Source: an uncultured Clostridia bacterium (GTDB taxonomy: Bacteria; Bacillota; Clostridia; TANB77; CAG-508). Taken from it: DNA of 64,000 nucleotides. Of the stretch, positions 2,092-52,735 are shown one piece after another. Each line of letters opens with the position of its first letter. The stretch's first letter is position 1. A program made the position numbers and the translations under genes. The DNA lies in contig CAJUSU010000001.1 in the NCBI GenBank assembly GCA_910589185.1, positions 1,191 through 65,190 on the forward strand, given 5' to 3'. The notes under the pieces are model-generated. The model worked only from the letters and a program-made list of their open reading frames with translations. It was not told the DNA's origin and did not search any database.

Positions 2092-4359
2092 CTTACAGAA
2101 AGTATGACAAGCGGATTTGACTCAACAGCAGAACATAAAGATTTAGCAATTCAAGTACAATACACAGAAAACGGAATTACACAAAACACAAGCTACAACA
2201 TTAATGTAAAAGATGATGTAAGTAGTGTAACCTTAAAAACAGATCCAAAAACTGATTATCTATATGGAGAACCATTTGATATCAGCGGAGGAGAATTAGA
2301 AGTCACAAGACCAAGTGGAAATGTAACCATTCCATTAACAACAGATATGATAACTTCTACCTTTGACCCACAACAATTAGGAGAACAAACCATAACCATT
2401 GAATATGGTGGATTTACACTAGATTACAAAGTCAATGTAAAAGATTATCAAACAGGAATTGTTCTTACACCACCAACAAAAACAGAATACGAGTATGGAG
2501 AAGCTTTAGACTTAACAGGAGGTAGCGTACAAAAAGTAATGGCAAGTGGAGCAGCTACAACCCCAGTAGATTTAAGTGATACCACTCAAGTAACTTTAGG
2601 TACTTATGATCCAACTAAGGAAGGAGCACAAACCATTACCGTAGATTATGCAGGAGAACAAGCAAGTTTTGCCGTTACAGTAACTGATAATGTTCAGTCA
2701 ATTGCAATGGTAGACACTCCAAAACAAAAATACAAATATGGAGAACCACTAGATATTAGCGGAGGAACCATATTAGTAACCAGAACAAGTACAAGAACAG
2801 AAAACATTAACTTAGACCCTAGTATGGTAACAGGATTTAATCCTAACCAATTAGGAGAACAAACTTTAACGGTTACCTATAAAGGAGCAACAACAGATTA
2901 TACCGTAGAAGTTGAAGATTATGCAACAGACATTGAAATTACAAGACCAGATAAACAAATTTATAGCTTAGGTGAAGAATTAGACCTAACAGGTGCAACA
3001 GTTAAATTAGTAATGGCAAGTGGAACAACTACTACCCCAGTAGATATGACTGCTAGCATGATTACAGGATTTGACTCAAGCACAGAAGGTGCAAAACTAA
3101 TTACAGTAACCTATCAAGGATTTACAAAAACATTTAGTGTCAGTGTAATGGATAGTGTTAAGGGAATGATTTTAGTAACATTACCAAATAAATTAGATTA
3201 CTTATATGGAGAATCATTAGACTTAACAGGTGGAAGTATAGCGCTTATCAAAGAAAGTGGACAAACTTCACCAATACCAATGACAAAAGATATGGTATCA
3301 GGATATTCCCCAAATATCTTAGGTAACCAAACAATTACAGTAACTTATGAGGAATGTACACAAGAGTTTATCGTAAATGTAAAAGATTTTATTAGTAAAT
3401 TACAAGTAAAAGCACCAACAAAAACAAAATATGAATATGGAGAAGATTTAGACTTGACAGGTGGAACAGTAGGTATCTTAATGGCAAGTGGAAAATTAGT
3501 AGAAGAAACCCCATTAACAGCTTCTATGATATCTATATTCAATAATGAACAAGTTGGAAAACAAACCATAGCGGTTACATATCAAGGATTACAAGGAGAA
3601 TTCCAAGTAACAGTAGAAGATAAAGTAAAAGGTATCTCTATGAACGAATTACCAAATAAGGTAGAATACGAATATAGAGAAAAACTAGATGTAACTGGTG
3701 CAACAATTAATGTTGTAAGGTCAAGTGGAACTACTGTAGTGAAAGTGACAAACAAGATGGTATCAGGATTTAACCCTAGAAAATCCGGAAATCAAGTAGT
3801 TACAGTAACTTATGAAGGAATGAAAACACAATTTGTGGTAATGGTAAATGCACAAGAACAAACAACGCCAGTTATCCCAGTAAGACCAATAAGACCAGTT
3901 ACACCACAAGAACCAGAAAAACCAGTAGAAGAGCCAACACCAGAACCAACCCCAACTCCTATTCCAACACCAGAGCCAGAAAAGCCAACGGTAGTATTAG
4001 GAGAAAAGGACGAAAACAATGGCTTGGATAAGAAAACAGTAGCAGCTATCATTGGCGGATTAGGTATTTTATTACTACTTATCTTAGTTGTTATGAGACG
4101 TCGTAATGTTAAGATTTATGTAGAAGAAGATGGAGAATTCGTATTAGCTGGAACTGAAAAATTAACTAGAAACAATTTAACAATTAACATTGACCAATAT
4201 TTGGATGGAGAAACATACCATAGCAAAGTCATGATTTGCTTAAATGATTCTATTTCGGATAAATTAGATGAAGAAGAAATCGAAATTCAACATAGAGGAG
4301 AAATTGTTAAAGAAAAAATTAAATATCTAGGTGAACCAGTAGAAATCACCTTAGAATAG
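1..4359 (+). CDS. Large cell-surface protein, 5'-truncated by the window edge. It has about 16 tandem bacterial Ig-like (Big_3-like) domains, a Pro/Thr/Glu linker, a single C-terminal TM helix and a ~95-aa tail after the helix.
   Basis: The frame is open from nt 1: LTKEMTSGFD at nt 1-30 matches the internal repeat ALTESMTSGFD, so the ORF-track Met at 13 is internal. Repeats of ~87 aa end in '..G.QT(L/I)TVTY.G.T..Y.V.V.D'. A PT/E-rich linker is followed by the hydrophobic stretch TVAAIIGGLGILLLLILVVM plus RRRN, then ~95 more residues. No LPXTG was seen. Confidence 0.85.
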   Translation, partial: LTKEMTSGFDSSKEYLNNSLTITVTYTENNVTPAPTTSYKATVTDTVASIKITTFPKQDYKYNEPLDATAGKLEITRSSGQKATVNMTNAMITSTFDPQNIAEQTLTVTYGGQTTTYKVTVRDYVTGITVNPNTLTGTYNTSLADLIQNVKYEVTYKAAGPQGEQNLTTGMVSGYTPTSIQTQNLTVTYTDTDTNSGSKDENFTANLTVTLSNGVTGARITKPTNAKYNHGASLDTGTLTLINADGSETTGNWADVTITEADGSSVNMNPTEDEYKASNHKISKTLKLNYSKDGITADEVEYPIEIINDIKSIAMYTYPKQTYSVNDSIDVTGGEIMVTRAVGTEAIALTESMTSGFDSSQEYPDNSLVITVTYTENNVTPAPTTSYTATVTDTVSKITMGNTPKTNYKYNEPLDTTGGTLTITRSSGETATVDITEAMVSGYDPQNIAEQTLTVTYGGQTTEYKVTVKDYVTGITVTPTEVDGTYNQELADLIINKNIMYTVTYAKAGAKDPVAPTEGMVTGYNKTDLGDRNITITYTDTDADSATNGDTFPATVKVKTPNAISGAVITAPSKTTYNDSENLAEGTITLTYANGDTISGNWSDVTITNSDGTPYTMTATEDEYKASNHKISKTLKLNYTKDGVTAAEVEYSIDIINNVKSISMYQEPKTEYNIGDTIEVIGGEVLITRAVGNETIALTESMTSGFDSTAEHKDLAIQVQYTENGITQNTSYNINVKDDVSSVTLKTDPKTDYLYGEPFDISGGELEVTRPSGNVTIPLTTDMITSTFDPQQLGEQTITIEYGGFTLDYKVNVKDYQTGIVLTPPTKTEYEYGEALDLTGGSVQKVMASGAATTPVDLSDTTQVTLGTYDPTKEGAQTITVDYAGEQASFAVTVTDNVQSIAMVDTPKQKYKYGEPLDISGGTILVTRTSTRTENINLDPSMVTGFNPNQLGEQTLTVTYKGATTDYTVEVEDYATDIEITRPDKQIYSLGEELDLTGATVKLVMASGTTTTPVDMTASMITGFDSSTEGAKLITVTYQGFTKTFSVSVMDSVKGMILVTLPNKLDYLYGESLDLTGGSIALIKESGQTSPIPMTKDMVSGYSPNILGNQTITVTYEECTQEFIVNVKDFISKLQVKAPTKTKYEYGEDLDLTGGTVGILMASGKLVEETPLTASMISIFNNEQVGKQTIAVTYQGLQGEFQVTVEDKVKGISMNELPNKVEYEYREKLDVTGATINVVRSSGTTVVKVTNKMVSGFNPRKSGNQVVTVTYEGMKTQFVVMVNAQEQTTPVIPVRPIRPVTPQEPEKPVEEPTPEPTPTPIPTPEPEKPTVVLGEKDENNGLDKKTVAAIIGGLGILLLLILVVMRRRNVKIYVEEDGEFVLAGTEKLTRNNLTINIDQYLDGETYHSKVMICLNDSISDKLDEEEIEIQHRGEIVKEKIKYLGEPVEITLE

Positions 4360-4520
4360 CCTATAAAATGAGTTAACCCCATTAACTACATACAATATAG
4401 GAATAGAAGTAAAAAACGCTTAAAAGCGAAAATACGAGCTCGAAAATTGATACAAGGAAACGTAAATGAATTGTATAAGAAAAATGTAAGCTGTACAGTG
4501 AAAAGTAAATGAAAGCAAAG

Positions 4521-4894: not shown

Positions 4895-5380
4895 ATGGGA
4901 AGAAGAAGAAAATCTAGAAGTTTAATCAGTACACAGAGCCTACTCATTATTTTATGCCTTTTGCTAATAGCAGTAGCAGTACATATGCTATTTTCAGAAG
5001 ATGACGAAAAAATTGTGGTAGGACAAGCTAAAGAGCAAACACAAGCACAGAATCAAGAGAAAGATCAAGTACAAAACAAGGCACAAACAGAAAATCAAAC
5101 AAAACCTACTACAAATAGCGAAATAAGTAAAAAAGACGAAGTAAAAGTAGTGCAAAGTGGAAATAGTGCAAACGAAATCAATGAGCAAGAAGCAAGAAAA
5201 CTAGCAGTTAAACAATTCAAAGAGTTAAATGAGAGATGGGTAAAAGAAAGAGATTTAGAAGTACTAGAATTTTCAAGAGCAAATGAATATTATTATTATA
5301 TATCATCAAAAGAGAACACAGTAGAAATCAAAAAAGATGGTGGAAAAATTACTAGAATTAATAGTGTGCCAGTACAATAA
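4895..5380 (+). CDS. Small N-terminally membrane-anchored protein with a Q/N/K-rich linker and a PepSY-like C-terminal domain (tentative)
   Basis: RBS AAGAGGAG lies 8 nt upstream of the ATG. The basic N-terminus MGRRRKSR is followed by the TM helix LLIILCLLLIAVAVHML. The C-terminal ~60 aa (EQEARKLAVKQFKEL...EYYYYISSKENTVEIKKDGGKITRIN) resembles the PepSY pattern. Confidence 0.7.
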   Translation: MGRRRKSRSLISTQSLLIILCLLLIAVAVHMLFSEDDEKIVVGQAKEQTQAQNQEKDQVQNKAQTENQTKPTTNSEISKKDEVKVVQSGNSANEINEQEARKLAVKQFKELNERWVKERDLEVLEFSRANEYYYYISSKENTVEIKKDGGKITRINSVPVQ

Positions 5381-5387
5381 ATGATTA

Positions 5388-5418
5388 GAGATATGCAATA
5401 TTAGCATATCTTTTTTTT
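5388..5418 (+). terminator. Rho-independent terminator after the 161-aa gene
   Basis: GAGATATGC-aatatta-GCATATCT followed by a T8 run. Confidence 0.7.
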
Positions 5419-5793: not shown

Positions 5794-8700
5794 AAAACGC
5801 TAACAGAAAATTTATCCAGACTTGGAATGCAAAGAGAAAATAATGCATACCAACTTTTAAGCGATAGTAAAAATACTACCGCTAATTTGCCAACCCTCAC
5901 AAATTCGGCAAAAGAAAATATCACAGTAGCAGCAGGAAATAACTTCACAGCCGTGCTAAAAGCAGATGGCACTGTATGGACATGGGGTAACAACAACTGT
6001 GGCCAATTAGGTAATGGAGAAATTGAAAATGTCGCAACCTATGAACTAACACAAGTTATTGGAGTAGGTGGAGTTGGATACTTAGAAAATATTAAACAAA
6101 TCGCAGTAGGAACTAGCGAAGTATATGCATTAACCAGGGACGGAAAAGTAATTGCATGGGGAAGAAATAACTATGCACAACTTGGTAGAGGTGCCACAGG
6201 AAATTCAGGAACACCAGAATATGTGTTGACACAAGTAGACATAACAGACGAAGAAGGTAACGAAACAACACAAGATGTACCACTAGAAAATATCAAACAA
6301 ATCGCAGCAGGGGAGAGACACGCTTTAGCAATTGACAATAATGGAAATGTATGGGCATGGGGCTTAAACCATGTAGGACAATTAGGACTTAATGTCATAT
6401 CAACCACAGCTAGCAATGCAAATTACAAAAAAGCTTATGCAGTCAAAATGCAAAAAGAAGTAGAAGTGACAGATGATGAAGGGAACATAATAACACAAAC
6501 TGTAAACCTTGACAATGCAAAACAAGTATCAGCAGGAAATGATTTTTCTGTCATTCTAACCAATGACGGAAAAGTATATTGTACAGGAATTGGAACTTCA
6601 GGACAAATTGGAAATAATGCAGCAGTAAATGTCATGATACCAACACAAGTACAAGACTTAGAAGATGTTAAGAAAATAGATGCAGGTGGTTCACATACCC
6701 TTGCACTAAAGAATGATGGAACAGTATGGGCATGGGGACTTAATCGATATGGGCAATTAGGAATTAATACAGCAAGTACCACTAGCAGTAATGCCGCATA
6801 CAAAAGAATTTATCCAGTACAAGTATTAGAAGCAGCAGGAGTACCACTAGAAAATATTGCAGATATTAGTGCAGGTTTAGAAACTAGCTATGCTATCACA
6901 GAAGAAGGAGACCCTTTTGGTTGGGGACTAAACACCTCAGGACAAATAGGAGATAGCACAGCAACCAACAGACTAATTGCAACACCAATTAAAAAAGCAG
7001 CAGGAGAATACCTTACCGGAATTAAAATGCTATCTGTTGGGCAAAACACCAATAGCCACTACATGATAGACGAAAAAGGCGATATTTATGGAAGCGGACT
7101 ATCTACTTCTTACCAAATGCTAAGTGATAGAGTAACTATCACCAATATTGCCACTAGACTAGATGAAACCTATTTGAAATTAAGCCATAACCAAGCCTAC
7201 CTAGAAGTAGGAAACACCTTAGATTTACAACTAGGATATCATAATGGATTGAATGTACTAGACAGAAGATTAGTTCCGGGAAATGTAACTTTCAGAAGTT
7301 CTAATGAAGACATTGCCACAGTAAGTGCAAGCGGAACTATCACAGCAAAAGCAAAAGGTTATGTCACTATCATAGCAGAAGACACCACCAATGGATACAC
7401 AGCACAAAGTATCATCAATGTAGTAGCAAAAGGTGCTAACGCACTTCCACAAGTAGCCAGTGGAACTCTAGCTACTGTTTACTTAAAAGAAGACGGAACT
7501 GTTTGGACCTCAGGAGATGGTACAAATGGAATGCTAGGAAATGGTTACACTAAAATTATCAATAAACCAGTACAAGTAAAAATTGGAACAGATGAATATT
7601 TAACAGATATTAGAAAAATAGAAGTAGGAACAGAACACGTAGTGGCACTTAGAAAAGATGGTACAGTATGGGCATGGGGACTTGGAACCTCAGGACAATT
7701 AGGAGATGGAGCAAATGTTACACATCATTATGCCACTCAAGTAGTAGATGAAACAGGAGAAGACTATTTACAAAACATCGTAGATGTAGCAGCAGGAATA
7801 GACTATTGTTTAGCATTAAAACAAGATGGCACTGTTGTAGGTTGGGGAGTTGGAGCTAACCACTCACTAGGTGTCAATAGCACTGCTAATAGAGCAATGC
7901 CTATCAAAATGCACGATAGCTATAACATTATACAAGTACAAGGTGGTTCAGACACAAGTACAGTGCTAAAAGCAGATGGAACTGTACAAGCAGTTGGACT
8001 TGGAACCTCAGGACAATTAGGAGATAACACAGCTACAACAAAAGCAGAATTAGTATATGCCATCAATGAAGACTTAGATGGAAAACTAACCGGAGTTGTT
8101 AGAATTGCCACAGGTAGCCACCACACGATAGCATTAAAAGAGGATAAAACCGCATGGATATGGGGTTACGACAATTATGGACAAATTGGTATGAACAATA
8201 CCACCAACTATAAACACGCTATTCCACTTAAAAACGTAGGAAACACAGATATTATGCAAAACATCAAAGACATTGCAACAGGTCCAACAGCTACTTATGT
8301 ATTAGACACACAAGGAAATGTATATGCAGTAGGACTAAATACAACAGGGCAATTATCTATTGGAAATGCAACAACTGTCAAAGTATTTACAGTAGCCAAA
8401 GATGAAAATGGAGATCCATTAACAGGAGTTGCCACCATTTCTAGTTCTAAAAATACTACTTTTGGATTTGCATTTGAGGACGGAACTGTTGGTATAACAG
8501 GGCTTGGAACTAGTGGACAACATGGAAATTGGACTTTAGCCAATAGCAATAAAATGACAAGAATAGAAGGAGCAGTATTAGATGCAGGTAACATTTATGA
8601 AACTTATGTCAACAATACTGTCAAACTAAATGTTAACATAAAACCAGCATTTAACTTAAATATTGATTATGAAAAGAACTTACAACTAGGAGAATTAACT

Positions 8701-35700: not shown

Positions 35701-37014
35701 AAACAAATACTAGTCAATGGGGAAGACGTAGATTTAACAACATTTGAACATATTGTGAAAAATGTTAATGAATCAAGTATTGTGATTATTCCAGAAGATG
35801 AAAATGCAACCGTTAAGTTAGATAGTAACACTTCTAGCACAAATGATAATACTTGGAAAGTAGATACTTCTACAACAACTATTAGGGGAATTACAGTGAC
35901 AGCACCAGACGGAACAGAAAAAGAGTATGCATTAACATTGATGAAAAAGGTAACGATTTCAGGAACTATTACAGATGAAAACATCGTGGATAAACATATT
36001 GCCAAAGTCTTTGTTTACCAAACTGATGACACAAGAAAGGAAAGTACCAAAACGGATTTGAATGGTATCAAACTAGACGAAACAAGCGGAACAGTTCAAA
36101 CGAATGTAAGGGAAATTATCGCTGAGGTAGAAACAAAGCCAGACGGAAGTTATGAAATCGTGTTAGAACCAGGAGAATATGATGTAGTATTTACAAAACC
36201 GGGTTACTTAACACATAGAATTACACATATTGATATTTCAAAAGGAAAAGGCGCAGAATTAGACAAAGTAGCAATGCTTGCCGGTGATGTTGTTGAAACA
36301 GGCGAAATTGAATTAGACGACTTAGTAAGCATCAATGAACAATACGGTTTAACAGTAAGCTACGCAGACGGCGTAAATGACGCAAATGTAAAATATGACT
36401 TCAATGGTGATGGTATCGTAGATGCAAAAGATAGAAATATCTTAAAGAAAAACTACGGTAAGAAAGCAAAAACAGTAAAATGGGTTAATCCAGATGAAGT
36501 AGCAAAACAAGAAGCGACAAAAGCAGCAAGAAAAGCTAACAAAATAGTAAGCAGTGAGACTAGGGGAACTTCTGCTTATGAAGGACAATTCGTTTTACCA
36601 CTAAATAGCAAATACACCATTACGTCAAACTATGGGGACAGAATTGGACCTATCACTGAAACAAATGAAAAACACACAGGAATTGATATTGCAGGAGAAC
36701 ATCATGCAGAAGTACTTGCAGTTACTGATGGGGAAGTAACATGGGCAGGTGTACAAAACGGATATGGTAACTGTATTGAAGTGAAACATATTGTTAATGG
36801 GGAAACAATTTACAGCTTCTATGCACACTTATCAGAAATCAGAGTAAAAGTCGGAGATAAAGTAACACAGGGCCAAGTGATTGCTTTAGAAGGTGGAGAT
36901 CCAAGTACTGACCCTAATCCGGGGGACAGTACAGGACACCACTTACACTTCGAAATCAGAACAAAATCTGGTTATGGAAATGATGTGGATCCTACACAAT
37001 TTATCAAGTTCTAG
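5683..37014 (+). CDS. Giant (10,443 aa) secreted or surface-anchored mosaic protein. Order of parts: signal/anchor, 17 x (RCC1 propeller + Big_2), 23 x cadherin-like beta-sandwich, CarboxypepD_reg-like, dockerin-like, M23 peptidase.
   Basis: There is no stop codon for 10,443 codons. A GAGGGA RBS lies ~7 nt upstream of ATG 5683. The N-terminus is basic and followed by a hydrophobic helix. Recognisable domain motifs run along the entire length (see sub-features). Antisense ORFs are all short. Confidence 0.95.
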   Translation: MKLSKKLRKRRNKKLLTLLVGAVATTGIVAATQLTGFKTLTENLSRLGMQRENNAYQLLSDSKNTTANLPTLTNSAKENITVAAGNNFTAVLKADGTVWTWGNNNCGQLGNGEIENVATYELTQVIGVGGVGYLENIKQIAVGTSEVYALTRDGKVIAWGRNNYAQLGRGATGNSGTPEYVLTQVDITDEEGNETTQDVPLENIKQIAAGERHALAIDNNGNVWAWGLNHVGQLGLNVISTTASNANYKKAYAVKMQKEVEVTDDEGNIITQTVNLDNAKQVSAGNDFSVILTNDGKVYCTGIGTSGQIGNNAAVNVMIPTQVQDLEDVKKIDAGGSHTLALKNDGTVWAWGLNRYGQLGINTASTTSSNAAYKRIYPVQVLEAAGVPLENIADISAGLETSYAITEEGDPFGWGLNTSGQIGDSTATNRLIATPIKKAAGEYLTGIKMLSVGQNTNSHYMIDEKGDIYGSGLSTSYQMLSDRVTITNIATRLDETYLKLSHNQAYLEVGNTLDLQLGYHNGLNVLDRRLVPGNVTFRSSNEDIATVSASGTITAKAKGYVTIIAEDTTNGYTAQSIINVVAKGANALPQVASGTLATVYLKEDGTVWTSGDGTNGMLGNGYTKIINKPVQVKIGTDEYLTDIRKIEVGTEHVVALRKDGTVWAWGLGTSGQLGDGANVTHHYATQVVDETGEDYLQNIVDVAAGIDYCLALKQDGTVVGWGVGANHSLGVNSTANRAMPIKMHDSYNIIQVQGGSDTSTVLKADGTVQAVGLGTSGQLGDNTATTKAELVYAINEDLDGKLTGVVRIATGSHHTIALKEDKTAWIWGYDNYGQIGMNNTTNYKHAIPLKNVGNTDIMQNIKDIATGPTATYVLDTQGNVYAVGLNTTGQLSIGNATTVKVFTVAKDENGDPLTGVATISSSKNTTFGFAFEDGTVGITGLGTSGQHGNWTLANSNKMTRIEGAVLDAGNIYETYVNNTVKLNVNIKPAFNLNIDYEKNLQLGELTYQSLDEEVATVSTDGTVIGMKEGTTGIVITDTTNEIETTAYVTVGQRDFSDIYKIVAGSNHTVLLKQDGTVWAWGANNVGQMGNGEIFSKQATQAERVLAPEGTGYLTDVIDIAAGTSFSVALKRDGTVVAWGDNTYGQLGNTNGVAERPVYVLDMYGNKLTGVTSVSAARDHAAAVKADGTVWAWGRNDYGQIGNNSSLATCAYAVQVLDSTGADYLKDIKQVSVGQAFVTALAKDGTVWSWGLGTSGQLGNAAKATKKLPVQATGVTDVTKVVAGNAGVAVLKTDGTVWCWGMNRYGTLGYGTLSTSSSNANYLKTTQIQVKIDANTYLENVKDIGGTFETRFALTQDGTVYGWGLNTTGEIGDSTKANKAYATRPVRRYKDEVENTIVKLSSSTSGYTNYLIKEDGSILGNGRATNGQILEGGNYTERAYVDDVLVSYMEFANRIEYIKQGATKKLEVRGVENLNALGKAPELGKLTWKSMNENVVSIDQNGNITAKELGQATIIATEDKHGYRAQATIYVTANKEEAIAAPMVVQGTGFTVALKADGTVWAAGLNNNGALGDGTYTNRENLELVKIDENTNLTNVVRIAAGNSHVVAVTKDGFVYAWGLNGNGQLGIGSTVKQNYAQKVLDETGEDYLSNIIDVAAGGLHSIAIDNQGNVYTWGKGGNYQLGNYATANKTTPIRVWDTYNIVKAAGGTEHTMLLRGDGVVQGTGLNTNGWLAMGDADTRYTPLEIGSNAEAAIQREIYDIGAGANHSIFLKEDGKVYTVGLNTSGQLATGNATASNVLVVAQTKNEKDELVDLENIVSVSAGNATSFAISKTGEVYSAGLNTSGQLGLGNSTSPINTFTKVLDDEGENPLQNVIANSNGSGNTINSAFITKDGVLYTCGNNANGQLGNSTYFNYNVPVIAGDAQLKIANTQMKVQLNQEAQIDLKLEQGFNVYNNTKEVGTNLTYEATNPNVVTVSNTGKVTGKRLGTTRIKITDKDNKITEYVPVTVLHSYGFTEAKIVSGLNFAVALKEDGSVWAWGNGTSGRLGNGSTANQTQEVPVLDPNGKDQLTGVIDIAVGHDSTVALLQDGTMVAWGNNANYNLGDGTNVDRSIPVFVVDANGDKIQNITKIARGNDYTLALTKEGEVYSWGYNKYGQLGNGGTSTNATPIKVKESTGKGTLKGIIDVKCTMYASIALDADGSVWTWGKNANGELANGTKDDITLPKLSKLTDIDQLATSAYSGIAIDKNGALWSWGWNGYGQLADGTTTDRATPVSAKLNATDLVTDVIDIGTSGGTHYILTSNYQVYAVGGNAQGQIGDNTTTNRSYYTQVKAKYGEALTDKIVKISKSMSRTDSSTDTSTAYLTREDGSILGLGKNSGYQLFGKNQDILKCAKEMKTSYLEMIERINRIKIGENTKLILNMVQNFNIYSRTPVAGNITWTSSNESIATVDQKGTITGLKEGQTTITAKDDKYGYIATSIIYVTRNTASTITIPQVAQGQKFTVVLKADGTVWATGQNNYGQCGADSSVANIGELTPVKTENGTPLNNIVKVISGLDHTLALTKDRKVYVWGLNSNGQLGINSKVNQYAATYMLDEDGENPVTDVIDIAAGESFSTILKANGELYAVGNGTYSQLGIGNTTAYMTLVKMEEMQNVVQVVNGGYHTVMLRGDQTVWTVGRNRYGEMGINSIKDSSTATAQGMGYARQVINQDQNGVLRNITQVTAGGYHSVALTNTKEVYSWGYGGDGQLGTGKTAHFAYPQTVLSYKPTAEEDEGISGIIQVGSSERSIFFLTENHEVYATGENSNYQLSQDNTTDLLTPNGLYDYTGEKYIDEIANIPTGSKNINNTTVIKQDGTVWVSGLGANGQIGNGEFQTATLYTRMGIAKLQVADKIVTLAQGETHTLDVSVNQGFNVYEGETDKAGKLNYTSSNTQIAAVDENGVITAGKQGEARITIYDPVHDWTTSTLVKVTRDAEDKVKAETSVGSAGLILKTDGSVWTAGDNTYGQRGVGDKAKHLTETPVLDPNGTDKLTDVISISAGQYFNAAVKRDGRVVTWGINTYGQLGNKTNVNSEIPVYVLDIDGNPLTDIFQVYCGENHAVAVRKDGSVWTWGYNYYGQLGDNTATNRNYAIQVKDRSGLGHLQGICQVVANRNTTLALTDTGEVYAWGYNYDGQLGDGTRTTGSNPGGRRKLLPVKAVITDVARLAGGLHSTLALKNDGTIWTWGLNRYGSLGYGSSSTSEGTHYAKATPMQVKIDSVTFLTDVVEIGTSYESDYAVTKDGKVYAWGYNNAGQLGVNNTTNYSYAQLIKTRYGELLTDKIVTLSKGTTASTNYLVREDGTILGVGYTGSSQKLFTNRTANMATVQELRPDFMEVDKRVSYIKQGESTKLNIQIAKNLNAFTGHIKLGNLTWTSSNPEIATVTNDGTITAVALGETTITIKDLAHNYQAQAVVYVIQNHEQAITMPDVSQGDNFSVFLKADGSVWTTGLNSSGQLGDGTTINRSKPVRVKINSKEYLSGIVKIAAGLDHVTALSKTGEVYTWGTNDVGQLGNGGTTRSVFASKILDSNGQNPISNVVDINCGHKFTLMLLNDGTVWGVGRNAYGELGILNNTNKSLPVQMDGIANAIRVQANSSGSSIQIADGTVWTTGYNYYGTLGQNGTNTGSSAASQGRNAPNPVINNTRNAVLRNVVKLVGGLHHDIVLQEDNTVWAWGYNHVGQYGTGNTTNFAYPVRVQMGGEELTDKVVNVGTSGYNALLQTIDAQNKKHTLITGYNNNGQLGNGTTTNATSFIPLNNKDNTEEAENIDILPDDTRGHFTLGVIDTNGTVWTAGLNNYGQLGDDTVYNRKNIVQVGEIALKVEDIIFTMNPNDTKQIKAYIEDSFNVYIKENQVGTLKFESLDVAIAEVSDTGVVTAKGIGDTLIRVIDTSRNIQSAVYVKVIKKQDDMQYEPMVDGGTAHSVALKGDGTVWTWGYNKFGQLGNNTTVTTEMPTQVLGKDATGFLTDIQMVASGKNHVLALKNDGTVWAWGYNNYGQLGDNTQITRYTPVQVLAEDASSPLQDIIYIAAGEDYSVAINKKGEVWTWGKNDYGQLGDGTKTAKYTPTRVKANLSGIIKVACGIRHTVALKADGSIYTWGDNGNGQLSDNTNTQRLIPVKVLETADTYVSDAISISATNYSTHILKADGTVKSVGLGTSGQLGDGGKVNTKLPVTVVGVGGTDTLAQVKSIKSGANTTYALRKDGTVVSWGLGTNGELGNEALANSLFPVEVVNHTQDGILSNILYIGAGANHGMAVEDTGYVEVWGLNSQKQVGDITIAKSTYPLYIGSKIVATPSEVTMEVGDTQNLKVAMQSFNLFRATEDETMTRVTYQSLNEAVATVSKNGTITATGMGITTIVVNDHLSAKVTTVQVSVLENNAIATPKVVSGINHTIALKADGTVWTWGYNHHGQLGDGTTKSSYIPQKIGLTDVIDIAAGDHFSMALKKDGSVWVWGFNDRGQLAQGNTAESLTPVPVKGVNGDPLPRVKKIAACRYSWVAILETGEVVGCGANTQAILGDGTSTDRYFPVYMLNHNGSAHVKEVKDITIGQCETFLIKEDGSLWSVGHNCNGGMGVGNKTAYTRIRQVQDTTGTGVLNNIIQVSGGGWYTLALDANGNVWAMGRNAEYELGINNTTSQTRPQKVLGVGGTGYLENIVRIEAGYYSSYAVDKAGDVYAWGDNRHGQLGINNATTQKVPKQVLGGTAGGNLDDVMLASSNGYHATFVKYDGTVWTTGYNGNGELGNDSTAKRLTVECISNPQLEVDQKYLLFSQNLGETKKVNVKANSGFNLLTDTATAGANTFKSLNTSIATVDQDGNITSAGSGTTYIRITNDTLGLTTTVKVVVPYRDGIVVPKVDGGANHYVALKADGTVWTWGYNGYGQLGIGNTANQLEPVKTNMTDVIDVAAGGNFTAVLKKDGTVWVTGQNNYGQLGQNNTTNTTNFIQVKSENGLANLTDIIGITAGEYHMAALKSDGTVVAWGYNAYGQLGNNTKTTAKLPTRVRRVSSIMEIAANGNYLIMLVSDGTVWAAGNNNIGQLGQNNTTVSTIPLKIKNPAGTGEMTGIAKVEAGNGHTILLGENGRVYSTGQNNYGQLAQGNTTNKTLIVEAKEVGGAVITNAADIVARNCTTMILRKDGTVYTAGYNAYGAAANGTTVANKYFTKMLGEYGEGDFTNVLLGAQTNNTALVANNIGSVYTAGYNAYGQLGDKTTKQSNYLVGISHTSLEVKEPIMTMQQIGSQKQIECKLNLGFNILYNNLQTENYTYKVLNKDIASVDANGVVTALKYGSTSIEITNQETGNKATVILNVVREGDIANPKVASGVDYNVALKSDGTVWTWGYNNYGELGLGDTARRLEPTKVNITGVIDIAVGNHHTLLLKQDGTVWAMGLNNYGQIGNNTTTNVSQPVQVQGLENIIRIEAGANHSIALKSDGTVYGWGYNAYGQLGDNTTTRRNVPVEVRRISGIKDIAAGNHSSMALDTDGNVWVWGLNTSGQLGLGTKTNAILPTKLTSVSKIAQVEMGTNYGMVVTENGEVYSFGVNDVGQLGIGNKTNQITPKQVLQADKTPLTNVEYVAAGTKHVLAKTKNGLAYGWGLDTNSQLGDDQTTNKLNAVPITYAGGADEITEVLEVAAGNAHSILVREDGTVWTVGKNNYGQIGDETTINKKSWVCISEIRIKVKETSITINAVGGKYNLSPVLGVGFNLLYDDGADGDFAFASKDTTTADVSEKGVITGVKRGKTKIGITETNTEKTIYVDVYVLDEKDVAFPQIVTGESTTVALKADGTVWTWGQNDKGQLGLGDNKNRIAPTKVDIDNVIKIATSGNHTLALKKDGTVWAWGQGTAGQLGTGLLQNSNVPVQVRDETGVNVLQNIKEIATANQLSMVVTSEGKVYAWGLGTSGQIGNGAKTNQTMPTKTLGLSNITKIAGGNLSAYAITDEGEAYAWGYNNRGQLGDGTNTLRTQPVKIPNLTGIIEISATSTEQVIALKDDGTVWGWGYSTLGALTDVGGSTPKQIAGKTNRMKDIASISAGYYAGLAITDEGKVLGWGTNGFGGLGNGTTTNTATPTHVMESATKELDQIFIIAMGKNYSVYAKEDGSVWATGTNEFGQLGNTSTVTIHTPENISQDYISTNKLELVFHELNVEQPINATYNFGFNLYNNSADVKFTYTSEDDTVAAVGENGMVTSRNIGKTYINITAGELTRRVEVNVLAPQEIAAMDAQGGLRHTLALKTNGTLWAFGDNSYGQLGLGSVESTTYHKPQEVKLPENTKFTKIAVGSNHNLALDTNGNVYGFGLNANGQLGNNTNTNSGELVKVEGLTNIVKIAAYKNMSMALNQDGELFVWGEGYSKQPEKVDFHAKVIDMTGRILLSEQGTVWNMKNLNEKTPTLTNIVEIASGDSHNLALKADGTVYGFGANNYGQLGTGNTTNADKPVVISNLPKVESVKANLYTSYVLTSAGEVYSFGRNTKSSLGQNTSATYNMAPTKIDSTKVQRISAGQNFGIYVNDEGFVYSWGNNDYGQLAQDEKEIITPSVIGTVKVQTDKDYITIEEGETKGISATLNNTFNLRKDVIASDGFTFESMNTGIATTQDIRVTGVKEGITPIVISHPASEQKSAIYVEVVRPNAKSVIDLKAGTDFNLALKADGSLWSWGSGTYGKLGVGSLDNHNEPQVIQTASRTRQIATGLEHIVVLSEEGKAYTAGKNGNGQCGNGTSVNSKDLTNVLNENGKPLENLVMVAAHGNTTYLLDNEGIVYACGAGYNKVATKIANLPKMAQISGNYGITMDKKVFDLSTGSQVEKLENIIKIAQGDNHTLFLSQAKTVYSLGTNTNGQGGIGTKTNIMTPTQVKNNVGTGILTGVVDIAAGKNFSMAVLDNGTVYTWGSNENNKLGTDQVNDQILPRRNTNIQNAMKVAAGTNHAAFVANDGRVYAWGNGENGTLGNGVDANSTQPVLVGSEEVVVDNHHVTLHIDEEITLNANVKSFNLIQDLEKGSLTYKLNDNSIATIDNNGKITGVKEGVTSVTVTQDGTDHQAIVQVTVIRKNANVNPLVKTTNSSNVILKADGTVWTYGANDNGELGNGNNTASDNLNQVVFNPEVKIKEIAVGENHVLALDENGEVWAWGSNSYYQLGTSEIASSNQPIKLELGSKAIKIAAGHNSSYAITADNSLMAWGLNTDGQLGLGNNDNRLLPTKVRTLKNVLDVTAGKSHTVIVTTNGTVYTTGNNSFGSLTGDDYKRNTFKVATNLSNIAYISAGEYHNMALSTKNEVYVWGYNVYGQLGTGNTSNINQPVKVDIANAKQVSSGKSHSSILTKEGKLYSTGLNSLGQLGTTSKDNQVTFTLVDTIDEVYGIDTGNTYDMAIKNDGTVWAWGDYYHGTNAIRTKSNSRVPTQIGIQNFYLVENDISVNKDTSKQLQVNPQFEFNVFENNTLENNFSYISLNEDIAVVDENGNVTGKKVGTTWVKVIENTSKAEQIAIIRVTEPGNKVAPKVAGGINYAVVLKADGSVWSFGYNSNGQLGDSSFVASKVPKEINILKSYTDITAGDNFTLILKNDGTVWSVGDNQYGQLGLGDRTSRQTPTVIPNLENVVKIAAGSKHSIALTKYGEVYTWGANTNGKLGIGNLDTKDLPVKVEIPGANIIDVAAGEGYIALVDSNGTIYVSGKLGSIESKVPVAVSGIANSAKAAAGKDLIVLTKEGNVVQVGEQTTTLYSSKDAVDIAAKGTNYLILNNSGKLFDGGISSNGEIGEVLTIGSGMNNTYYIATSGLVYSKGQNQYGSLGNDTTDNSEEYTLVGKRSFTVSPNNILMSTNDIKDLTLTSERYNVLKQDNRTINDFDWVSNDTNIVTVEAPAQIKAIAEGETTITVTQKDTGAEVEVMVVVEPLEAQRLEKLAVNEVDAQVSGAKKYEVTIATDKDNGSLVITTKDKTDKISIDGGTTWFENGSLTQVVSLPNSVTQIPIKVQTSNGTVFDYTLDVIKQSTITTLESLTVNGTEATATGGTNYSIVVEDADLATVKAVTTHQQAKVGIDSNSVKVHEATEDLSLVDTLIRTVPIQVIAESGKEVNYVLTIYKKSAVTELESVTVDGKEATKNNHLNYSMVVEKDSTQVDVKAIALYDLANVNINNLGAEVKETTRTITLTGDVTIVKIKVGMGEEEKEYTLTITKKVDGSDLADLFVNGEKATKVSDNQYEAVVASNSQTAEVLAIAAVNTSNVQIGSNAQEVGSSKVVVATPDNSNIYTITITDAEDVSKTATYTLTIKKPSTDNSLKYIRISNNEISVDATRDAGTDTYRVKINEKYENLTITAVANYELAEVAIETNSYQVKQDTLAYTFNTESATLQIKVKAQDGDEKTYTLILEKQSSDVTLEYVKVNGANAVKSAEKADTYEITLTQKVDDVTVEAKTTDEAAEVALNNIVYELQTITKQIAMDAKEITVKINVKAEDGTTKTYDLIIHSVPDNTKLTEITVNGVTAVLQPYSNKYVVRVPSNLTTYAVTAKAEDSLAMVKIDNFDAILAQSTQNIAKTEPAPTKVAIEVTAQDKESKEQYELEIYPRSQDTILAYLKVDESFVEPADDGQYYVKVVNSTTSVKIEAKAGDENATTGINKAGTTNIVTEVGTLTGDVTVFDIIVTAEDGNTKTYKLNVEKLSNDTSIVGIYVDGNEVIAVDGKYVAKIGNNTTCLVKAIATNPDAKVSVDGNTDAVKENQNTVDVNEEEKTIEITVTAPDGTKKIYPLTLQRNSTDNTLLSISGKDVPEDAVVQTSETTYQMIVSNELTKLELTAVTSSKVAEVKIGDNSYEVNTQTKEVTLPNDTNTVIITVKSESGEEKEYTLTIIKKYVLTLDSITVDGVAAEKQEDGTYIAWVDPTSTQSNVVVTPTSSKVQVKVGETINNIGTTNYTVATTEDETISKIIVKSPIEEDQVEYTLKIMKKSQDTTLEYVKVDSQVGTEEDDGSYTVKVPVQDNSYTMEVKTTSPYAQVKIEDNAFALGTDSYTLNLTGVNSKTVTVTVKAQDGTEKTYTVNVQKVSSDNTLQTVKVNNVEITEVDGIYRAFIKEDVTNANLYVETTHSGATIKLGEDDEKVHTVTKDITMDQTEKTIAMKVTAEDGSVKQYTVIIAKESSDIEIQSVKVDNKGAIVVDESTYYITATPGATEAEVEVIAANQYAGVQINGSAKQTGKNTVKVTLPANQKVVAVPIVITAQNGKDSKTYTLNIEQVSNNTNIIKVTVNGKDVTTYDEETKTYTHIVDYSVDEATVTVETENAEATVRIEAGAFSKHTATENVSTAGEINDITITVVAEDGTTENRTLVIKKLSQDASILKLFVNDVDIAANDDGSYTAEVVESETKATVRIKTTNKDAQILLDGTALENKGEGTKEYTTTGTRQITVPIKIIAEDGITTKETTLTINIVSDNKNLEYVKVNGVVVTEYDEDTSTYQAFIPATAATASVEVKAISPYATLNIDGNTATQVITYTATTDADITYVYVDVIAENDSVKTYTIAMQKESTDNTLKDLYKDGTQVDPEEDENYIINVPEDTLELTLKAIANNEYATVAIGNETAEVKETTKTVTLATGKTTTVNITVTAQDKSQRVYTVTINKVSANNNIEYVKVNSNVITNYDADTKTYEAFIPAGATSASLEVQSENAYAQVEVLDAIGTHNVNTTVTIDEEETLVSAIVTSETGVEETYYIRLIRISTDNSIKQIYVNGTLIEQDEDGNYIAEVAENSKDALVKVVANNKYASVQIANGEAKTEASEETVTLSTDKITNVAITVTSQSGTVANETLIIKKVSDDTGINTVLVNSIECKNYDETTKTYTAYIGADVDQSEVAVMANSQGATVTIEDVTGTGNANKTVATTAQTTKLAVTITSETGKTAKYTILIVKESADATVELIKVNDKEVQAPYDVTIKKLDTKAKIYVKATNSNAIVKIGDEAAEKGSSEVTLTIPLEQEVIVVPVVVTAQNGVAKETYNITLRRISNNTGIKQILVNGEDVDLTTFEHIVKNVNESSIVIIPEDENATVKLDSNTSSTNDNTWKVDTSTTTIRGITVTAPDGTEKEYALTLMKKVTISGTITDENIVDKHIAKVFVYQTDDTRKESTKTDLNGIKLDETSGTVQTNVREIIAEVETKPDGSYEIVLEPGEYDVVFTKPGYLTHRITHIDISKGKGAELDKVAMLAGDVVETGEIELDDLVSINEQYGLTVSYADGVNDANVKYDFNGDGIVDAKDRNILKKNYGKKAKTVKWVNPDEVAKQEATKAARKANKIVSSETRGTSAYEGQFVLPLNSKYTITSNYGDRIGPITETNEKHTGIDIAGEHHAEVLAVTDGEVTWAGVQNGYGNCIEVKHIVNGETIYSFYAHLSEIRVKVGDKVTQGQVIALEGGDPSTDPNPGDSTGHHLHFEIRTKSGYGNDVDPTQFIKF
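5920..29400 (+). repeat. Array of 17 modules, each an RCC1-type beta-propeller (~7 blades) followed by one Big_2 Ig-like domain
   Basis: The blade motif 'DG(T/S)VW(T/A)WG.N..GQLG.G' recurs in groups. Each group is followed by a Big_2-like block ('..L.(Y/W).S.N..IATV...G.ITA...G.T.I....'). The Big_2 blocks end near nt 7425, 8835, 10275, 11710, 13135, 14597, 16050, 17500, 18915, 20320, 21705, 23055, 24405, 25640, 26890, 28205 and 29400 (about +/-15 nt). The module at ~18915-20060, parsed residue by residue, has exactly seven blades. Confidence 0.85.
29419..35949 (+). repeat. Array of 23 tandem cadherin-like beta-sandwich domains (PF12733-type pattern)
   Basis: There are 23 units of ~90-97 aa. 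The pattern is 'L..(L/I).V.G......(D/G).Y...V......V.(V/I).A......A.V.I.........V.L......I.I.V.A.DG....YT(L/V).I.K.S'. I counted them from the recurring '..K.YTLTI.K.S'-type endings. Confidence 0.8.
35955..36245 (+). other. CarboxypepD_reg-like (carboxypeptidase regulatory-like beta-sandwich) domain
   Basis: ISGTITDENIVDKHIAKVFVYQ...VETKPDGSYEIVLEPGEYDVVFTKPGYLTHRITHIDIS shows the typical 'G.V.D..G.P...A.V.......T..DG.Y.....PG.Y.....K.GY' pattern. Confidence 0.6.
36280..36466 (+). other. Dockerin-like duplicated EF-hand segment
   Basis: GDVVETGEIELDDLVSINEQYG (degenerate first repeat) and DFNGDGIVDAKDRNILKKNYG (a good match to the dockerin D.N.DG.(I/V)D..D...LK..L pattern). Confidence 0.6.
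36589..37011 (+). other. C-terminal M23 (LytM/lysostaphin-family) metallopeptidase domain, predicted active
   Basis: HTGIDI (HxxxD), YAHLS and GHHLHFEI (HxH) are all present in canonical order and spacing. The glycine-rich core 'GYGNCIEVKH' is also present. Confidence 0.85.
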
Positions 37015-37063
37015 TGTCAGTTTGGGGACGTTAGTTTAACTGACATCTGTCCCCTAACTGACA
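37015..37063 (+). repeat. Palindromic intergenic element, copy A (full-length, 49 nt). It begins at the first nt after the giant gene's TAG.
   Basis: TGTCAGTT-T-GGGGACGTTAGTTT-AACTGACA-TCT-GTCCCC-T-AACTGACA. Two alternative folds are possible: an inner 8-bp hairpin, or a 14/15-bp outer stem TGTCAGTTTGGGGAC/GTCCCCTAACTGACA. Confidence 0.85.
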
Positions 37064-37065
37064 TT

Positions 37066-37103
37066 CCTAGAAAAAGACGAGCGACGGCTCGTCTTTTTCT
37101 AGG
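37066..37103. terminator. Strong rho-independent terminator of the giant gene (perfect 17-bp stem, bidirectional A/T tracts)
   Basis: CCTAGAAAAAGACGAGC-GACG-GCTCGTCTTTTTCTAGG. Confidence 0.85.
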
Positions 37104-37120
37104 AATATTTTGTGAAACTC

Positions 37121-37155: not shown

Positions 37156-37235
37156 AGCTTAAGCAAATAGCATAAGATTAGGTGCATAAAATAATCCCTC
37201 GTAGTTTGTTCCTACGAGGGGCTTTGCTATTTATG
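37156..37235 (+). ncRNA. Candidate small antisense RNA (type I antitoxin-like). It is convergent with the 30-aa ORF and overlaps that ORF's 3' end. The ends are inferred.
   Basis: It would start ~7 nt after the consensus promoter. It contains the hairpin CCCTCGTAG-tttgttc-CTACGAGGG followed by a U-rich tract. No ORF or RBS is present. Confidence 0.4.
37196..37220. terminator. Bidirectional hairpin terminator shared by the candidate sRNA (+) and the small ORF (-)
   Basis: CCCTCGTAG/CTACGAGGG is a 9-bp stem. The minus strand continues ATTATTTTAT and the plus strand continues GCTTTGCTATTTAT. Confidence 0.6.
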
Positions 37236-37445: not shown

Positions 37446-38216
37446 ATGATAGCATTAGTCACAGGAGCCTCATCAGGAATAGGAAAAGACATTGCTAGAG
37501 AATTAGCAAAGAGAAAATATGATATAATTGCAGTTGCTAGAAATGAAGGAGCATTAAAGGAAGTAAAAGCAGAATTAGAACAAGAATATGACATAAAAGT
37601 AGATATAAGAAGCATGGACTTAATTGATAGAGATGGCTGTAGAAAATTACATGAAGACGTACAAACACAATATGAAACTATAGACATATTAGTCAATAAC
37701 GCAGGATTTGGAACCTGTGGCGAATTTACCAAAACTGACTTAGACAAAGAATTAGGAATGATAGATACTAACATCGTAGCACTTCATATCTTAACCAAAC
37801 TATTTTTAAGAGATATGGTAAAAGAGAATAAAGGGCGTATCTTAAATGTAGCCTCTATTGCAGGCTTTATGCCGGGCCCCCTTATGGCAACCTATTATTC
37901 TACGAAAGCCTATGTGGTAAGGTTAACGCAAAGTATTAGGCAAGAACTATTTATGCAAAAATCCAAGGTGAAAATAAGTTGTTTATGTCCGGGACCAGTT
38001 AAAACTAATTTCAATAAAGTAGCAGATGTAAAATTTAATTTGTTAGAGGCAGATAGTGGAAAAGTTGCAAAATGTGCAGTAAAGCGTATGTTCAAAAATA
38101 GAATTCTAATCTTTCCAGGATTTTTTGTATGGATAGGAAGGCTACTTGCCAAAATATCTCCAGACCAAATTTGTGCATTTTTTTGCTACTTTGCACAAAA
38201 AAGGAAAATTCAATAA
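37446..38216 (+). CDS. Short-chain dehydrogenase/reductase (SDR) family oxidoreductase
   Basis: TGASSGIGKDIA (TGxxxGxG), NNAG and the YSTKAY (YxxxK) catalytic motif are present. The RBS is AAGGAGAAAA. Confidence 0.9.
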   Translation: MIALVTGASSGIGKDIARELAKRKYDIIAVARNEGALKEVKAELEQEYDIKVDIRSMDLIDRDGCRKLHEDVQTQYETIDILVNNAGFGTCGEFTKTDLDKELGMIDTNIVALHILTKLFLRDMVKENKGRILNVASIAGFMPGPLMATYYSTKAYVVRLTQSIRQELFMQKSKVKISCLCPGPVKTNFNKVADVKFNLLEADSGKVAKCAVKRMFKNRILIFPGFFVWIGRLLAKISPDQICAFFCYFAQKRKIQ

Positions 38217-38266
38217 TGCCGCGTGAGGGACGTTAGTTTGTACGACATCCGTCCCTGAGTGCGACA
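38217..38266 (+). repeat. Palindromic intergenic element, copy B (full-length variant, 50 nt). It begins at the first nt after the SDR TAA.
   Basis: TGCCGCGT-GA-GGGACGTTAGTTT-GTACGACA-TCC-GTCCC-TGA-GTGCGACA, followed by TTATTTTTT. It lies between convergent genes. Confidence 0.8.
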
Positions 38267-50647: not shown

Positions 50648-50678
50648 TGTCCGATTAGGGACGTTAGTTTATCGGACA
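50648..50678 (+). repeat. Palindromic intergenic element, copy C (short form, 31 nt). It begins at the first nt after the sortase TAA.
   Basis: TGTCCGAT-TA-GGGACGTTAGTTT-ATCGGACA. The stem differs from copy A at two positions, and both changes are compensated on the opposite arm. Confidence 0.8.
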
Positions 50679-50686
50679 AAATAGAG

Positions 50687-50721
50687 AAAAAAGTTGTACA
50701 CAAAAATGTACAACTTTTTTT
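50687..50721. terminator. Rho-independent terminator after the sortase gene
   Basis: AAAAAAGTTGTACA-caaaaa-TGTACAACTTTTTT. Confidence 0.8.
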
Positions 50722-50769
50722 CTTGGTTTCATATGTAATTTTAAATTGCTATATATAAAGCAAAAACAC

Positions 50770-52634: not shown

Positions 52635-52665
52635 TGTCAGTTTGGGGACGTTAGTTTAACTGACA
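52635..52665 (+). repeat. Palindromic intergenic element, copy D (short form, identical to the first 31 nt of copy A). It begins at the first nt after the dnaB TAG.
   Basis: TGTCAGTTTGGGGACGTTAGTTTAACTGACA. Confidence 0.85.
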
Positions 52666-52686
52666 TTTTAGTAAAAATTGGAAAAG

Positions 52687-52735
52687 TGTCAGTCGAGGGA
52701 CAGATGTCAGTTAAACTAACGTCCCCAAACTGACA
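52687..52735 (-). repeat. Palindromic intergenic element, copy E (full-length, inverted orientation)
   Basis: The reverse complement reads TGTCAGTTTGGGGACGTTAGTTTAACTGACATCTGTCCCTCGACTGACA, which is 46/49 identical to copy A. Confidence 0.85.

Follow-up and report, generated by a model that had tools for sequence, protein, structure and literature searches.

REP-like palindromic elements abutting gene boundaries in uncultured gut Clostridia and their probable association with a RAYT-like tyrosine transposase

Five short palindromes in a 64-kb window of an uncultured Clostridia bacterium (the window being the whole stretch of DNA analyzed) appear to be copies of a repetitive extragenic palindromic (REP) family. 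They form a REPIN-like doublet where two copies converge, and their cognate enzyme would be a Y1/HUH transposase resembling those tyrosine transposases that are associated with REPs (RAYTs). The probability of this explanation is estimated at roughly 80%. The copies share one architecture with covarying arms, they lie at gene boundaries, and in related genomes members of the same family flank a transposase gene.

The element is far more frequent in the window than expected by chance. The exact core GGGACGTTAGTTT occurs five times, at 37025, 38227, 50658, and 52645 on the plus strand and at 52713-52725 on the minus strand. The number expected by chance is 0.77, and none of 100 dinucleotide-preserving shuffles reached five. 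This corresponds to a density of about one element per 13 kb. A covariance model built from 60 related long copies, run with filters off, found no sixth copy in the window. In a mechanical list of open reading frames (ORFs), the upstream ORFs end at 37014 (TAG), 38216 (TAA), 50647 (TAA), and 52634 (TAG), and therefore copies A, B, C, and D all start at the nucleotide after a stop codon (stop +1).

The five copies differ in length, arm type, and state of preservation. Copy A (37015..37063, plus strand) is a long form that scores 72 bits with the covariance model. It is composed of the left arm TGTCAGTT, the conserved sequence GGGGACGTTAGTTT, the inner right arm AACTGACA, and the outer right arm TCT-GTCCCC-T-AACTGACA. 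It starts at stop +1 of a 10,443-aa ORF (TAG at 37012-37014), and a separate terminator hairpin follows at 37063-37106. Copy B (38217..38266, plus strand) is a degenerate long form of the GCAC arm type that scores 58 bits, and its left arm TGCCGCGT differs from the consensus TGTCGCAC by three transitions. It fills the spacer between the convergent SDR gene (stop at 38214-38216) and Bax1-I gene (minus strand, ending at 38274), and its orthologue at a related locus (L013; related loci are cited by L numbers) is an intact 70-nt form. Copy C (50648..50678, plus strand) is a short form with a single hairpin and CGAT-type arms. It starts at +1 of the sortase TAA and is followed by a separate terminator at 50686-50721. 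Copy D (52635..52665, plus strand) is a short form of the AGTT type that starts at +1 of the dnaB TAG, and it has orthologous copies in L078 and L080. Copy E (52687..52735, minus strand) is an inverted long form scoring 69 bits. Its left end at 52735 lies 16 nt 5' of the ATG (52752) of a PP-loop (TilS-like) gene, which places it at the ribosome-binding site (RBS). Copies D and E are the left and right halves of a convergent, REPIN-like doublet (52635..52735) with a 21-nt spacer, which fills the whole dnaB-tilS spacer from stop codon to RBS. Pfam confirms the SDR, sortase, L9, and DnaB neighbors and the PP-loop/TilS-like gene 3' of copy E.

The elements are modular hairpins in which the arms vary while the loop motif is fixed. 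The arms are self-complementary but variable (TGTC-NNNN ... NNNN-GACA) around an invariant GGGGACGTTAG(TTT). Their building block, unit U, is TGTC-NNNN-nn-GGGAC, from which the basic element is built as U-GTTAGTTT-NNNNGACA. Longer nested forms have additional, optional modules (TGTCNNNNnnGGGAC or its inverse); an inverted U is present on the right of 64 copies, a direct U on the left of 9, and both in 2. The main arm types are TGTCAGTT/AACTGACA, TGTCGCAC/GTGCGACA, and TGTCCGTT or TGTCCGAT, each with its matching partner. In L019 (plus strand) and L081 (minus strand) there are chimeric copies whose left arm is of the AGTT type and whose right arm is of the GCAC type.

The pairing of the arms is kept while their sequence is free to change. 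Within the window the change from TGTCAGTT/AACTGACA to TGTCCGAT/ATCGGACA is compensatory, and TGTCGCAC/GTGCGACA is a third type among 60 distinct long copies. In these 60 copies pairing is 96.9% in the inner helix and 90.8% in the outer helix, and it falls to 8-50% in slid controls. Three arm columns have changed on both sides between subfamilies. The covariation stems from a small number of subfamily switches that copying has multiplied, and not from numerous independent changes. Among 116 copies the left arm pairs with the inner right arm perfectly in 79 and with one mismatch in 26. When the sequences were folded as single-stranded DNA, two alternative folds were present, and long copies use an outer stem of about 15 bp. 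Copy A folds at -14.2 kcal/mol (z -6.2) and the D-E pair forms one long hairpin at -37.1 kcal/mol (z -13.4), while the fold of copy B is no better than shuffles (z -1.7).

These results bear out most of what an earlier sequence-only reading of the window had described. It had reported the five copies with their coordinates and sequences, compensatory substitutions in the stem, two mutually exclusive folds, and four plus-strand copies at stop +1. The core count, the DNA folding, and the ORF ends agree with this description, and the compensatory changes now extend to a third arm type. It had also proposed, as one of two alternatives, a mobile REP- or MITE-like element, of no family that it recognized, and a search for a RAYT- or IS200-type transposase. 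The mobile-element alternative is supported, the failure to match any Rfam family is consistent with a family not yet described, and the search found such a gene in related genomes, flanked by inverted copies of the element.

A long-loop variant of the element occurs at several sites: L008 at about 1860-1990 (minus strand), L081 at about 4385-4510 (plus strand), L058 at about 5270-5400 (minus strand), L114 at about 630-760, and L117 at about 885-1010. The variant has about 80 nt of extra sequence in the loop GTTAGTTT (GTTA, then AGTTAGCTGTTCGAATGCAATGAGTTACAGATAACTTATGCAATTGAGCATAGCGAAATTGTAAACATTGA, then TTT), and the insert forms its own internal hairpin. The same insert is shared by several sites, including the addA-side flank of one transposase gene (RAYT-1, below). 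Folded as RNA the variant reaches -51.7 kcal/mol (z -7.2), and it has no match in Rfam. It may be the full-length form of the element, or a second element may be nested in the core.

The family is dispersed in uncultured gut Clostridia. One genome per species was scanned with the pattern GGGACGTTAGTTTNNNNGACA, and at least 89 stretches matched. The family counts (arms, pairs, and sites) cover the loci fetched among the matches listed, plus the window. Among the matches listed, nearly all are in about ten metagenome-assembled genomes (MAGs) that carry the label uncultured Clostridia and whose sources are mouse gut (MGBC), rabbit, and other guts, along with one Candidatus Scatovivens. The few isolated matches in unrelated phyla lack arms, and a scan of viral contigs for the element pattern gave no matches. 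The window itself is 93-96% identical to contig 1 of MGBC109261, and its DnaB is also present in mouse-gut metagenomes. At least 116 hairpin copies have paired arms, and 112 of these 116 are outside called ORFs. No Rfam family reaches its gathering score in the window, and around the copies there are only chance-level matches (E > 0.2).

The arrangement of the copies resembles that of REPINs. Neighboring copies lie within 150 nt of each other in 24 pairs, of which 23 are convergent (right end to right end), one is tandem, and none is divergent. The doublet spacers are 11-23 nt long with clusters at 21 nt (the mode) and 11-13 nt, plus one spacer of 44 nt. There is no target-site duplication; direct repeats at the junctions, with lengths from 2 to 8 nt, are no more frequent than permutation predicts. 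The left flanks of the 116 copies are variable (TAG in 21, TTT in 18, AAA in 15, others in the rest). At the right end, TTTT follows in about 70% of copies, though not where this end faces an RBS within an operon.

Orthologous sites show turnover as well as persistence. Many copies are kept at orthologous positions across species that are 85-95% identical. At about 10 of the 27 orthologous site clusters with several members, copies of different arm types are present, and all arms of a copy are switched together. One orthologous site carries further forms: opposite orientations (L001 vs. L034), a doublet (L031), and a deletion derivative (L044). Comparisons of filled and unfilled sites (L085 vs. 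L073, L077 vs. L053, and L014 vs. L018) are messy. Gene content also varies at the element sites. Gene insertions of 1.4 kb adjoin copies B and C in relatives, at 5075-6526 in L013 and 4762-6130 in L060, compared with 38272 and 50721-50728 in the window. The insertion in L013 contains a sigma factor and a putative anti-sigma factor, and that in L060 a 362-aa secreted or pilin-like protein. This extra DNA was examined for transposases, and the genes in it proved unrelated.

A RAYT-like transposase gene is bracketed by inverted copies of the element in several relatives. An ORF of 260-263 aa has this arrangement in L074, L086, and L088, is split across L011 and L069, and an element-flanked transposase ORF is found again in L107, L110, L114, and L117. 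The protein matches Pfam Y1_Tnp (E 1e-12 to 1e-14), and HTH_23, HTH_28, and HTH_29 match residues 219-257, giving a C-terminal helix-turn-helix (HTH). The best NCBIfam model is NF047646 (REP_Tyr_transpos) with 55-56 bits, compared with 21-23 bits for the IS200 model NF033573. The HUH motif is HNHVHLV and the Y---NP motif is RYIHFNP, the latter a class-2 signature (PMC6006769). H64, Y121, and N125 are invariant in 39 homologues, and the HTH domain is conserved. A PDB sequence search with the protein gave no match. Its AlphaFold model (AF2, mean pLDDT 87) is predicted to resemble most closely 4ER8 (E 2e-7, rmsd 2.3 A), a structure in which the REP-associated tyrosine transposase of E. coli is bound to a REP hairpin, and the transposases of IS608 (1.5e-5) and ISDra2 rank below it.

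This gene, RAYT-1, occupies a constant locus. The order, from translation and Pfam, is an addA-like helicase-nuclease gene, a small S4-domain gene, the RAYT gene, and dnaE. In L086 both flanks are inverted repeats of about 55 nt that consist, in this order, of the hairpin, CTTT, and the U module GGGGACACATG. In another lineage (L117-L120; gene at 1501-2085 in L117) the addA-dnaE locus has a RAYT-1 truncated to 194 aa, without the C-terminal HTH, that directly abuts dnaE, and the 257-aa form in L114 overlaps the dnaE start. These forms may represent decay of the transposase gene in some lineages.

A paralogous enzyme is paired with its own element. RAYT-2 is 65% identical to RAYT-1 and is found at a second fixed locus, between a glucoamylase (GH15) gene and radA; the GH15-RAYT-radA order holds down to 47% protein identity. 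At least three MAGs have both paralogues. One copy per type, at a fixed locus and vertically inherited, is the housekeeping-like distribution characteristic of RAYTs. On each side of RAYT-2 there is a sister element with the loop GTTCCTTT, made of TGTCAGGTTGGGGACGTTCCTTTTTCTGACA and a U module. The sister family (loop GGGGACGTTCCTTTTT with U module GGGGACA(C/T)ACCT) flanks the gene in L090, L094, L097-L100, and L105. It is also dispersed in the same genomes, including as convergent doublets, even though the loci were not selected for it; copies are found at 3273 in L001, 6606 in L010, 1848/1955 in L031, 1100/1207 in L045, 1523/1630 in L062, and elsewhere. The window has no copy of the sister element.

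The flanks of more distant homologues indicate which part of the element is constant. Homologues of 47% identity, still between GH15 and radA, are flanked by inverted hairpins with loops starting GGGGACGTT. Homologues of 35% identity (Dehalobacterium; annotated by NCBI as REP-associated tyrosine transposase) have flanking hairpins with loops starting GGGACGGTT. On this evidence GGGGACG(T/G)T beside the 5' arm, and not the arms, is what stays constant across the protein family. The same is seen at the RAYT-1 locus, where the flanking copies have AGTT arms in five MAGs and GCAC arms in two other lineages.

The left end of the element almost always abuts a gene boundary. Collapsing the orthologous copies gave 76 site clusters, and 73 of these could be scored. 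At 34 of the 73 sites the left end, which is the TGTC beside the GGGGAC side, faces a stop codon, in 27 of them at a distance of 0-7 nt and in 13 at distance 0. At 26 sites it faces a divergent start codon, mostly 12-18 nt away, which corresponds to the RBS. These distances were compared with a generous null model that places each unit uniformly in its own spacer, treats a doublet as one unit, and reserves 12 nt for the RBS. Distance 0 is found at 13 of 32 modelled stop-facing sites while 3.9 are expected, and none of 200,000 simulations reached 13 (the maximum was 11). The stop codon is TAG in 10 of the 13 distance-0 sites, compared with 30% among long ORFs of the same loci (p = 7e-4). The idea of a fixed target motif on the 5' side of the left end was rejected; stop-facing ends are mostly preceded by NTAG or NTAA, and RBS-facing ends by T-rich sequence. 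It is known that GTAG REPs frequently have termini that touch or supply stop codons (PMC3733652).

The element can itself overlap and terminate a gene, since it has stop codons in most reading frames. In the AGTT type the core supplies TAG and TAA, and the extension a further TAA. The addA ORF of four MAGs extends 7-8 codons into an element and ends at the TAG of GTTAG. Two other observations concern the junction after the stop codon. In L014 a TAG is followed by the element (6036-6066), and at the orthologous position in L018, between the stop codon and TTAAGAAAATATTAA, there is a TAA and then an unrelated 138-nt sequence with long inverted repeats (AAGCTGTAATAGTATTTGTTTT...AAAACAAATACTATTACAGCTT), so that two different palindromic inserts occur at one post-stop junction. 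The orthologue of copy C in L060 (4673-4718) has a 15-nt tandem duplication, TAATGTCCGATTAGG, over the stop codon and left arm, and as a result the intact copy begins 15 nt after the sortase stop and not at +1.

By analogy with E. coli TnpA_REP and IS200/IS605, the RAYT-like enzyme with its C-terminal HTH would recognize the folded single-stranded hairpin through the constant GGGGACGTT, and the arms would need only to pair. Its gene, single at the conserved addA-dnaE locus of relatives with inverted element copies around it, has the arrangement called a REPtron or TIRtron. The enzyme would cut and rejoin single-stranded DNA, and the doublet would spread in this way without target duplication. 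Single copies would arise later by deletion, inversion, or conversion between repeated arms, and, as has been suggested for REPs and REPINs (PMC3116915, PMC3337134), they may be what is left of doublets after decay or rearrangement. Copies would persist only where they are harmless, which in a compact genome means the handful of nucleotides that separate a stop codon from the following terminator or RBS. Catalysis, the single-strand mechanism, and present-day mobility are thus all proposed from better-studied systems, and the presence of a RAYT gene in the window's own genome is likewise inferred from related genomes.

Several points weigh against this explanation. No RAYT gene is found in the 64-kb window by tblastn, and the NF047646 scores of the transposase in related genomes are below the curated cutoff of 80 bits. 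The conserved GTAG (or CGTC) 5' of the stem is absent from the 116 copies. No clean empty site, excision footprint, or transposition event was seen among the loci compared. The exact stop +1 position and the excess of TAG are not predicted by a simple model in which the element inserts anywhere harmless. Finally, to our knowledge, there is no direct in vivo demonstration of RAYT-driven REP mobility, not even from model systems, and so the mechanism has to be argued by analogy.

The placement at stop +1 may result either from targeting of insertion, as in IS200/IS605, or from selection in compact spacers. IS200/IS605 elements insert 3' of a short guide-matched sequence (PMC8266576). Under selection, only a few bases between the stop codon and the RBS or terminator may be free in these genomes. 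The sequence-only reading had proposed a target preference close to stop codons. The bias is present genome-wide in relatives; such a preference may account for it, but so may selection acting within very short spacers, and half of the element ends abut an RBS and not a stop codon. A bolder and rather unlikely version is that the RAYT-like enzyme inserts the doublet at the first phosphodiester bond after the stop, prefers TAG, and uses the same sites again, perhaps through the HTH or by pairing, in a guide-like manner, with the core's TTAG. Gene-end targeting with re-use of sites would lead to different arm subfamilies, orientations, and forms at orthologous sites of sister species. If it is true, a Y1 transposase would have gene-end targeting, and HTH-bearing "TIRYT" enzymes, for which no hairpin substrate is known, would drive a true REPIN population.

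It is improbable that the element is primarily a structured RNA, kept by selection on transcripts in 3' untranslated regions and operon spacers as an mRNA stabilizer, a terminator helper, or a processing or protein-binding site. Copies A and C are transcribed, since each is placed after a stop codon and ahead of a terminator, but these are canonical terminators of their own. Copy B is the only hairpin in its convergent-gene spacer and is followed by a T-run, and the TTTT found after most right ends is terminator-like; the T-run is missing, however, where the right end faces an RBS inside an operon. The REPs of E. coli do stabilize mRNA, and the arms of the present element co-vary. Both orientations are used, on the other hand, with the left end of independent single copies toward a stop in 24 cases and toward a start in 12, and every doublet includes one antisense copy. 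In addition, the invariant loop motif is also found in the flanks of the transposase gene, and Rfam has no match. The sequence-only reading had taken the G-U pairs of copy B as evidence for an RNA on the plus strand, which does not hold. The arm mismatches comprise 17 G.T/T.G, 20 C.A/A.C, and 14 others, showing no bias toward G.U for either strand, as is typical of transitions that arise without selection on one strand or the other. Copy B, of the GCAC type, is decaying, and its G-U pairs are the result of decay and not of design. A structured 3'-end element, as that reading had also suggested, is therefore not supported as the primary role and could at most be a secondary, co-opted one.

Still less probable is that the copies are fixed binding sites for a DNA-binding protein (such as the RAYT-like HTH or a nucleoid protein) that organize the chromosome or regulate genes and are no longer mobile. 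The persistence of many copies at orthologous positions, the conserved HTH, and the fixed loci of the RAYT genes across deep divergence, as for domesticated genes, fit such a role. The differences in arm type, orientation, and doublet or deletion state at orthologous sites represent turnover and not conservation, and the catalytic HUH and Tyr motifs are invariant across the homologues. A binding function is in any case compatible with mobility, and REP systems are thought to have both. A classical miniature inverted-repeat transposable element (MITE) of the Correia, RUP, or BOX kind, moved by a DDE transposase that recognizes terminal inverted repeats, is hardly credible: the element is small, non-coding, and dispersed and its TGTC...GACA termini are inverted repeats, but there is no 2 to 8 nt target-site duplication beyond chance, the only transposase with matching flanks is the Y1/HUH enzyme, and the conserved part is internal while the termini vary between subfamilies.

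The window has two other features near copy A. The sequence from 5683 to 37014 (plus strand) is a single ORF of 10,443 aa (31 kb), presumably encoding a giant surface or repeat protein; it is preceded by a 1,448-aa ORF (13-4359), and copy A comes directly after its TAG. In the long spacer between the terminator of copy A and the SDR gene there is a strong hairpin at 37195-37221 (TCCCTCGTAG...CTACGAGGG), which is terminator-like on both strands and unrelated to the element.

REP and REPIN-RAYT systems have been studied almost only in Proteobacteria, and this well-populated family belongs to uncultured gut Clostridia and is associated with an HTH-bearing RAYT. The literature ties that type of RAYT to terminal inverted repeats and not to hairpin repeats. 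Two paralogous pairs of enzyme and element in the same genomes make up a natural experiment on specificity. The evidence is clear that the stem can change in sequence whereas the loop motif is fixed, and the strong stop +1 placement could be used to separate insertion targeting from selection. The elements also have consequences for annotation. They account for many intergenic hairpins in these MAGs and for some odd C-terminal extensions and stop codons, such as the end of AddA inside an element.

In its workings the family resembles the REP/BIME-TnpA_REP system of E. coli and the REPIN-RAYT systems of Pseudomonas and Stenotrophomonas (groups 2 and 3). Like these, it consists of short extragenic palindromes in high copy number, with convergent doublets, a short spacer, and no target duplication. 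A single Y1/HUH gene at a fixed locus is surrounded by inverted copies, there is one element family per paralogue, the copies are near or overlap stop codons, and the best fold match of the enzyme is 4ER8. It differs in having an invariant GGGGACGTTAG inside the loop beside the 5' arm where those systems have GTAG 5' of the stem. The enzyme has a C-terminal HTH, the elements are modular with extra half-units and nested stems, and the host is a Gram-positive anaerobe and not a proteobacterium.

A closer parallel for the enzyme is the TIRYT or "TIRtron" group (Di Nocera 2013, PMC3733652), which is subclass 2.1 of Quentin 2018 (PMC6006769). These are longer RAYT-like proteins with an HTH_23/HTH_28-like C-terminus and Y---NP. 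The terminal inverted repeats (TIRs) of the HTH-bearing TIRYT transposases share GGGGWSAS (PMC3733652, PMC6006769), which fits the modules GGGGACAC and GGGGACAG in the RAYT flanks and long copies and the core GGGGACGT. Some TIR families of this group are likewise repeated and dimeric. Quentin et al. found no REP-like hairpins near subclass 2.1 genes (PMC6006769), whereas the flanking repeats here are clear hairpins and are dispersed at the density seen in the window. The system thus appears closest to TIRYT/subclass 2.1, an assignment made by domain architecture and not by the phylogeny of those authors. Bertels et al. reported group 1 RAYTs in Clostridia, where the flanking 16-mers are only modestly repeated.

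A further comparison is with IS200/IS605 and their miniature derivatives (PATEs). Shared features are a Y1/HUH enzyme, subterminal DNA hairpins, here presumably recognized as single strands as well, and the lack of target duplication, and insertion beside a defined short sequence would give one end a fixed polarity. Unlike IS200/IS605, the element does not have left and right ends of distinct kinds, its gene is present once, at a conserved locus, and not in many copies, there is no TnpB, and the protein scores far better with the RAYT model than with the IS200 model (55 vs. 21 bits). The MIRUs of mycobacteria and other operon-spacer repeats are placed exactly after the stop codon of one gene and before the start region of the following gene in an operon. 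MIRUs are direct tandem repeats with small ORFs and not hairpins, and we know of no dedicated transposase for them. Overall the system is of a known kind of "junk-or-tamed" DNA in bacteria, the REP-RAYT kind, here in a new lineage and unusually tight against stop codons. What goes beyond the ordinary is the stop +1 placement with its excess of TAG and the wholesale switching of arms at orthologous sites.

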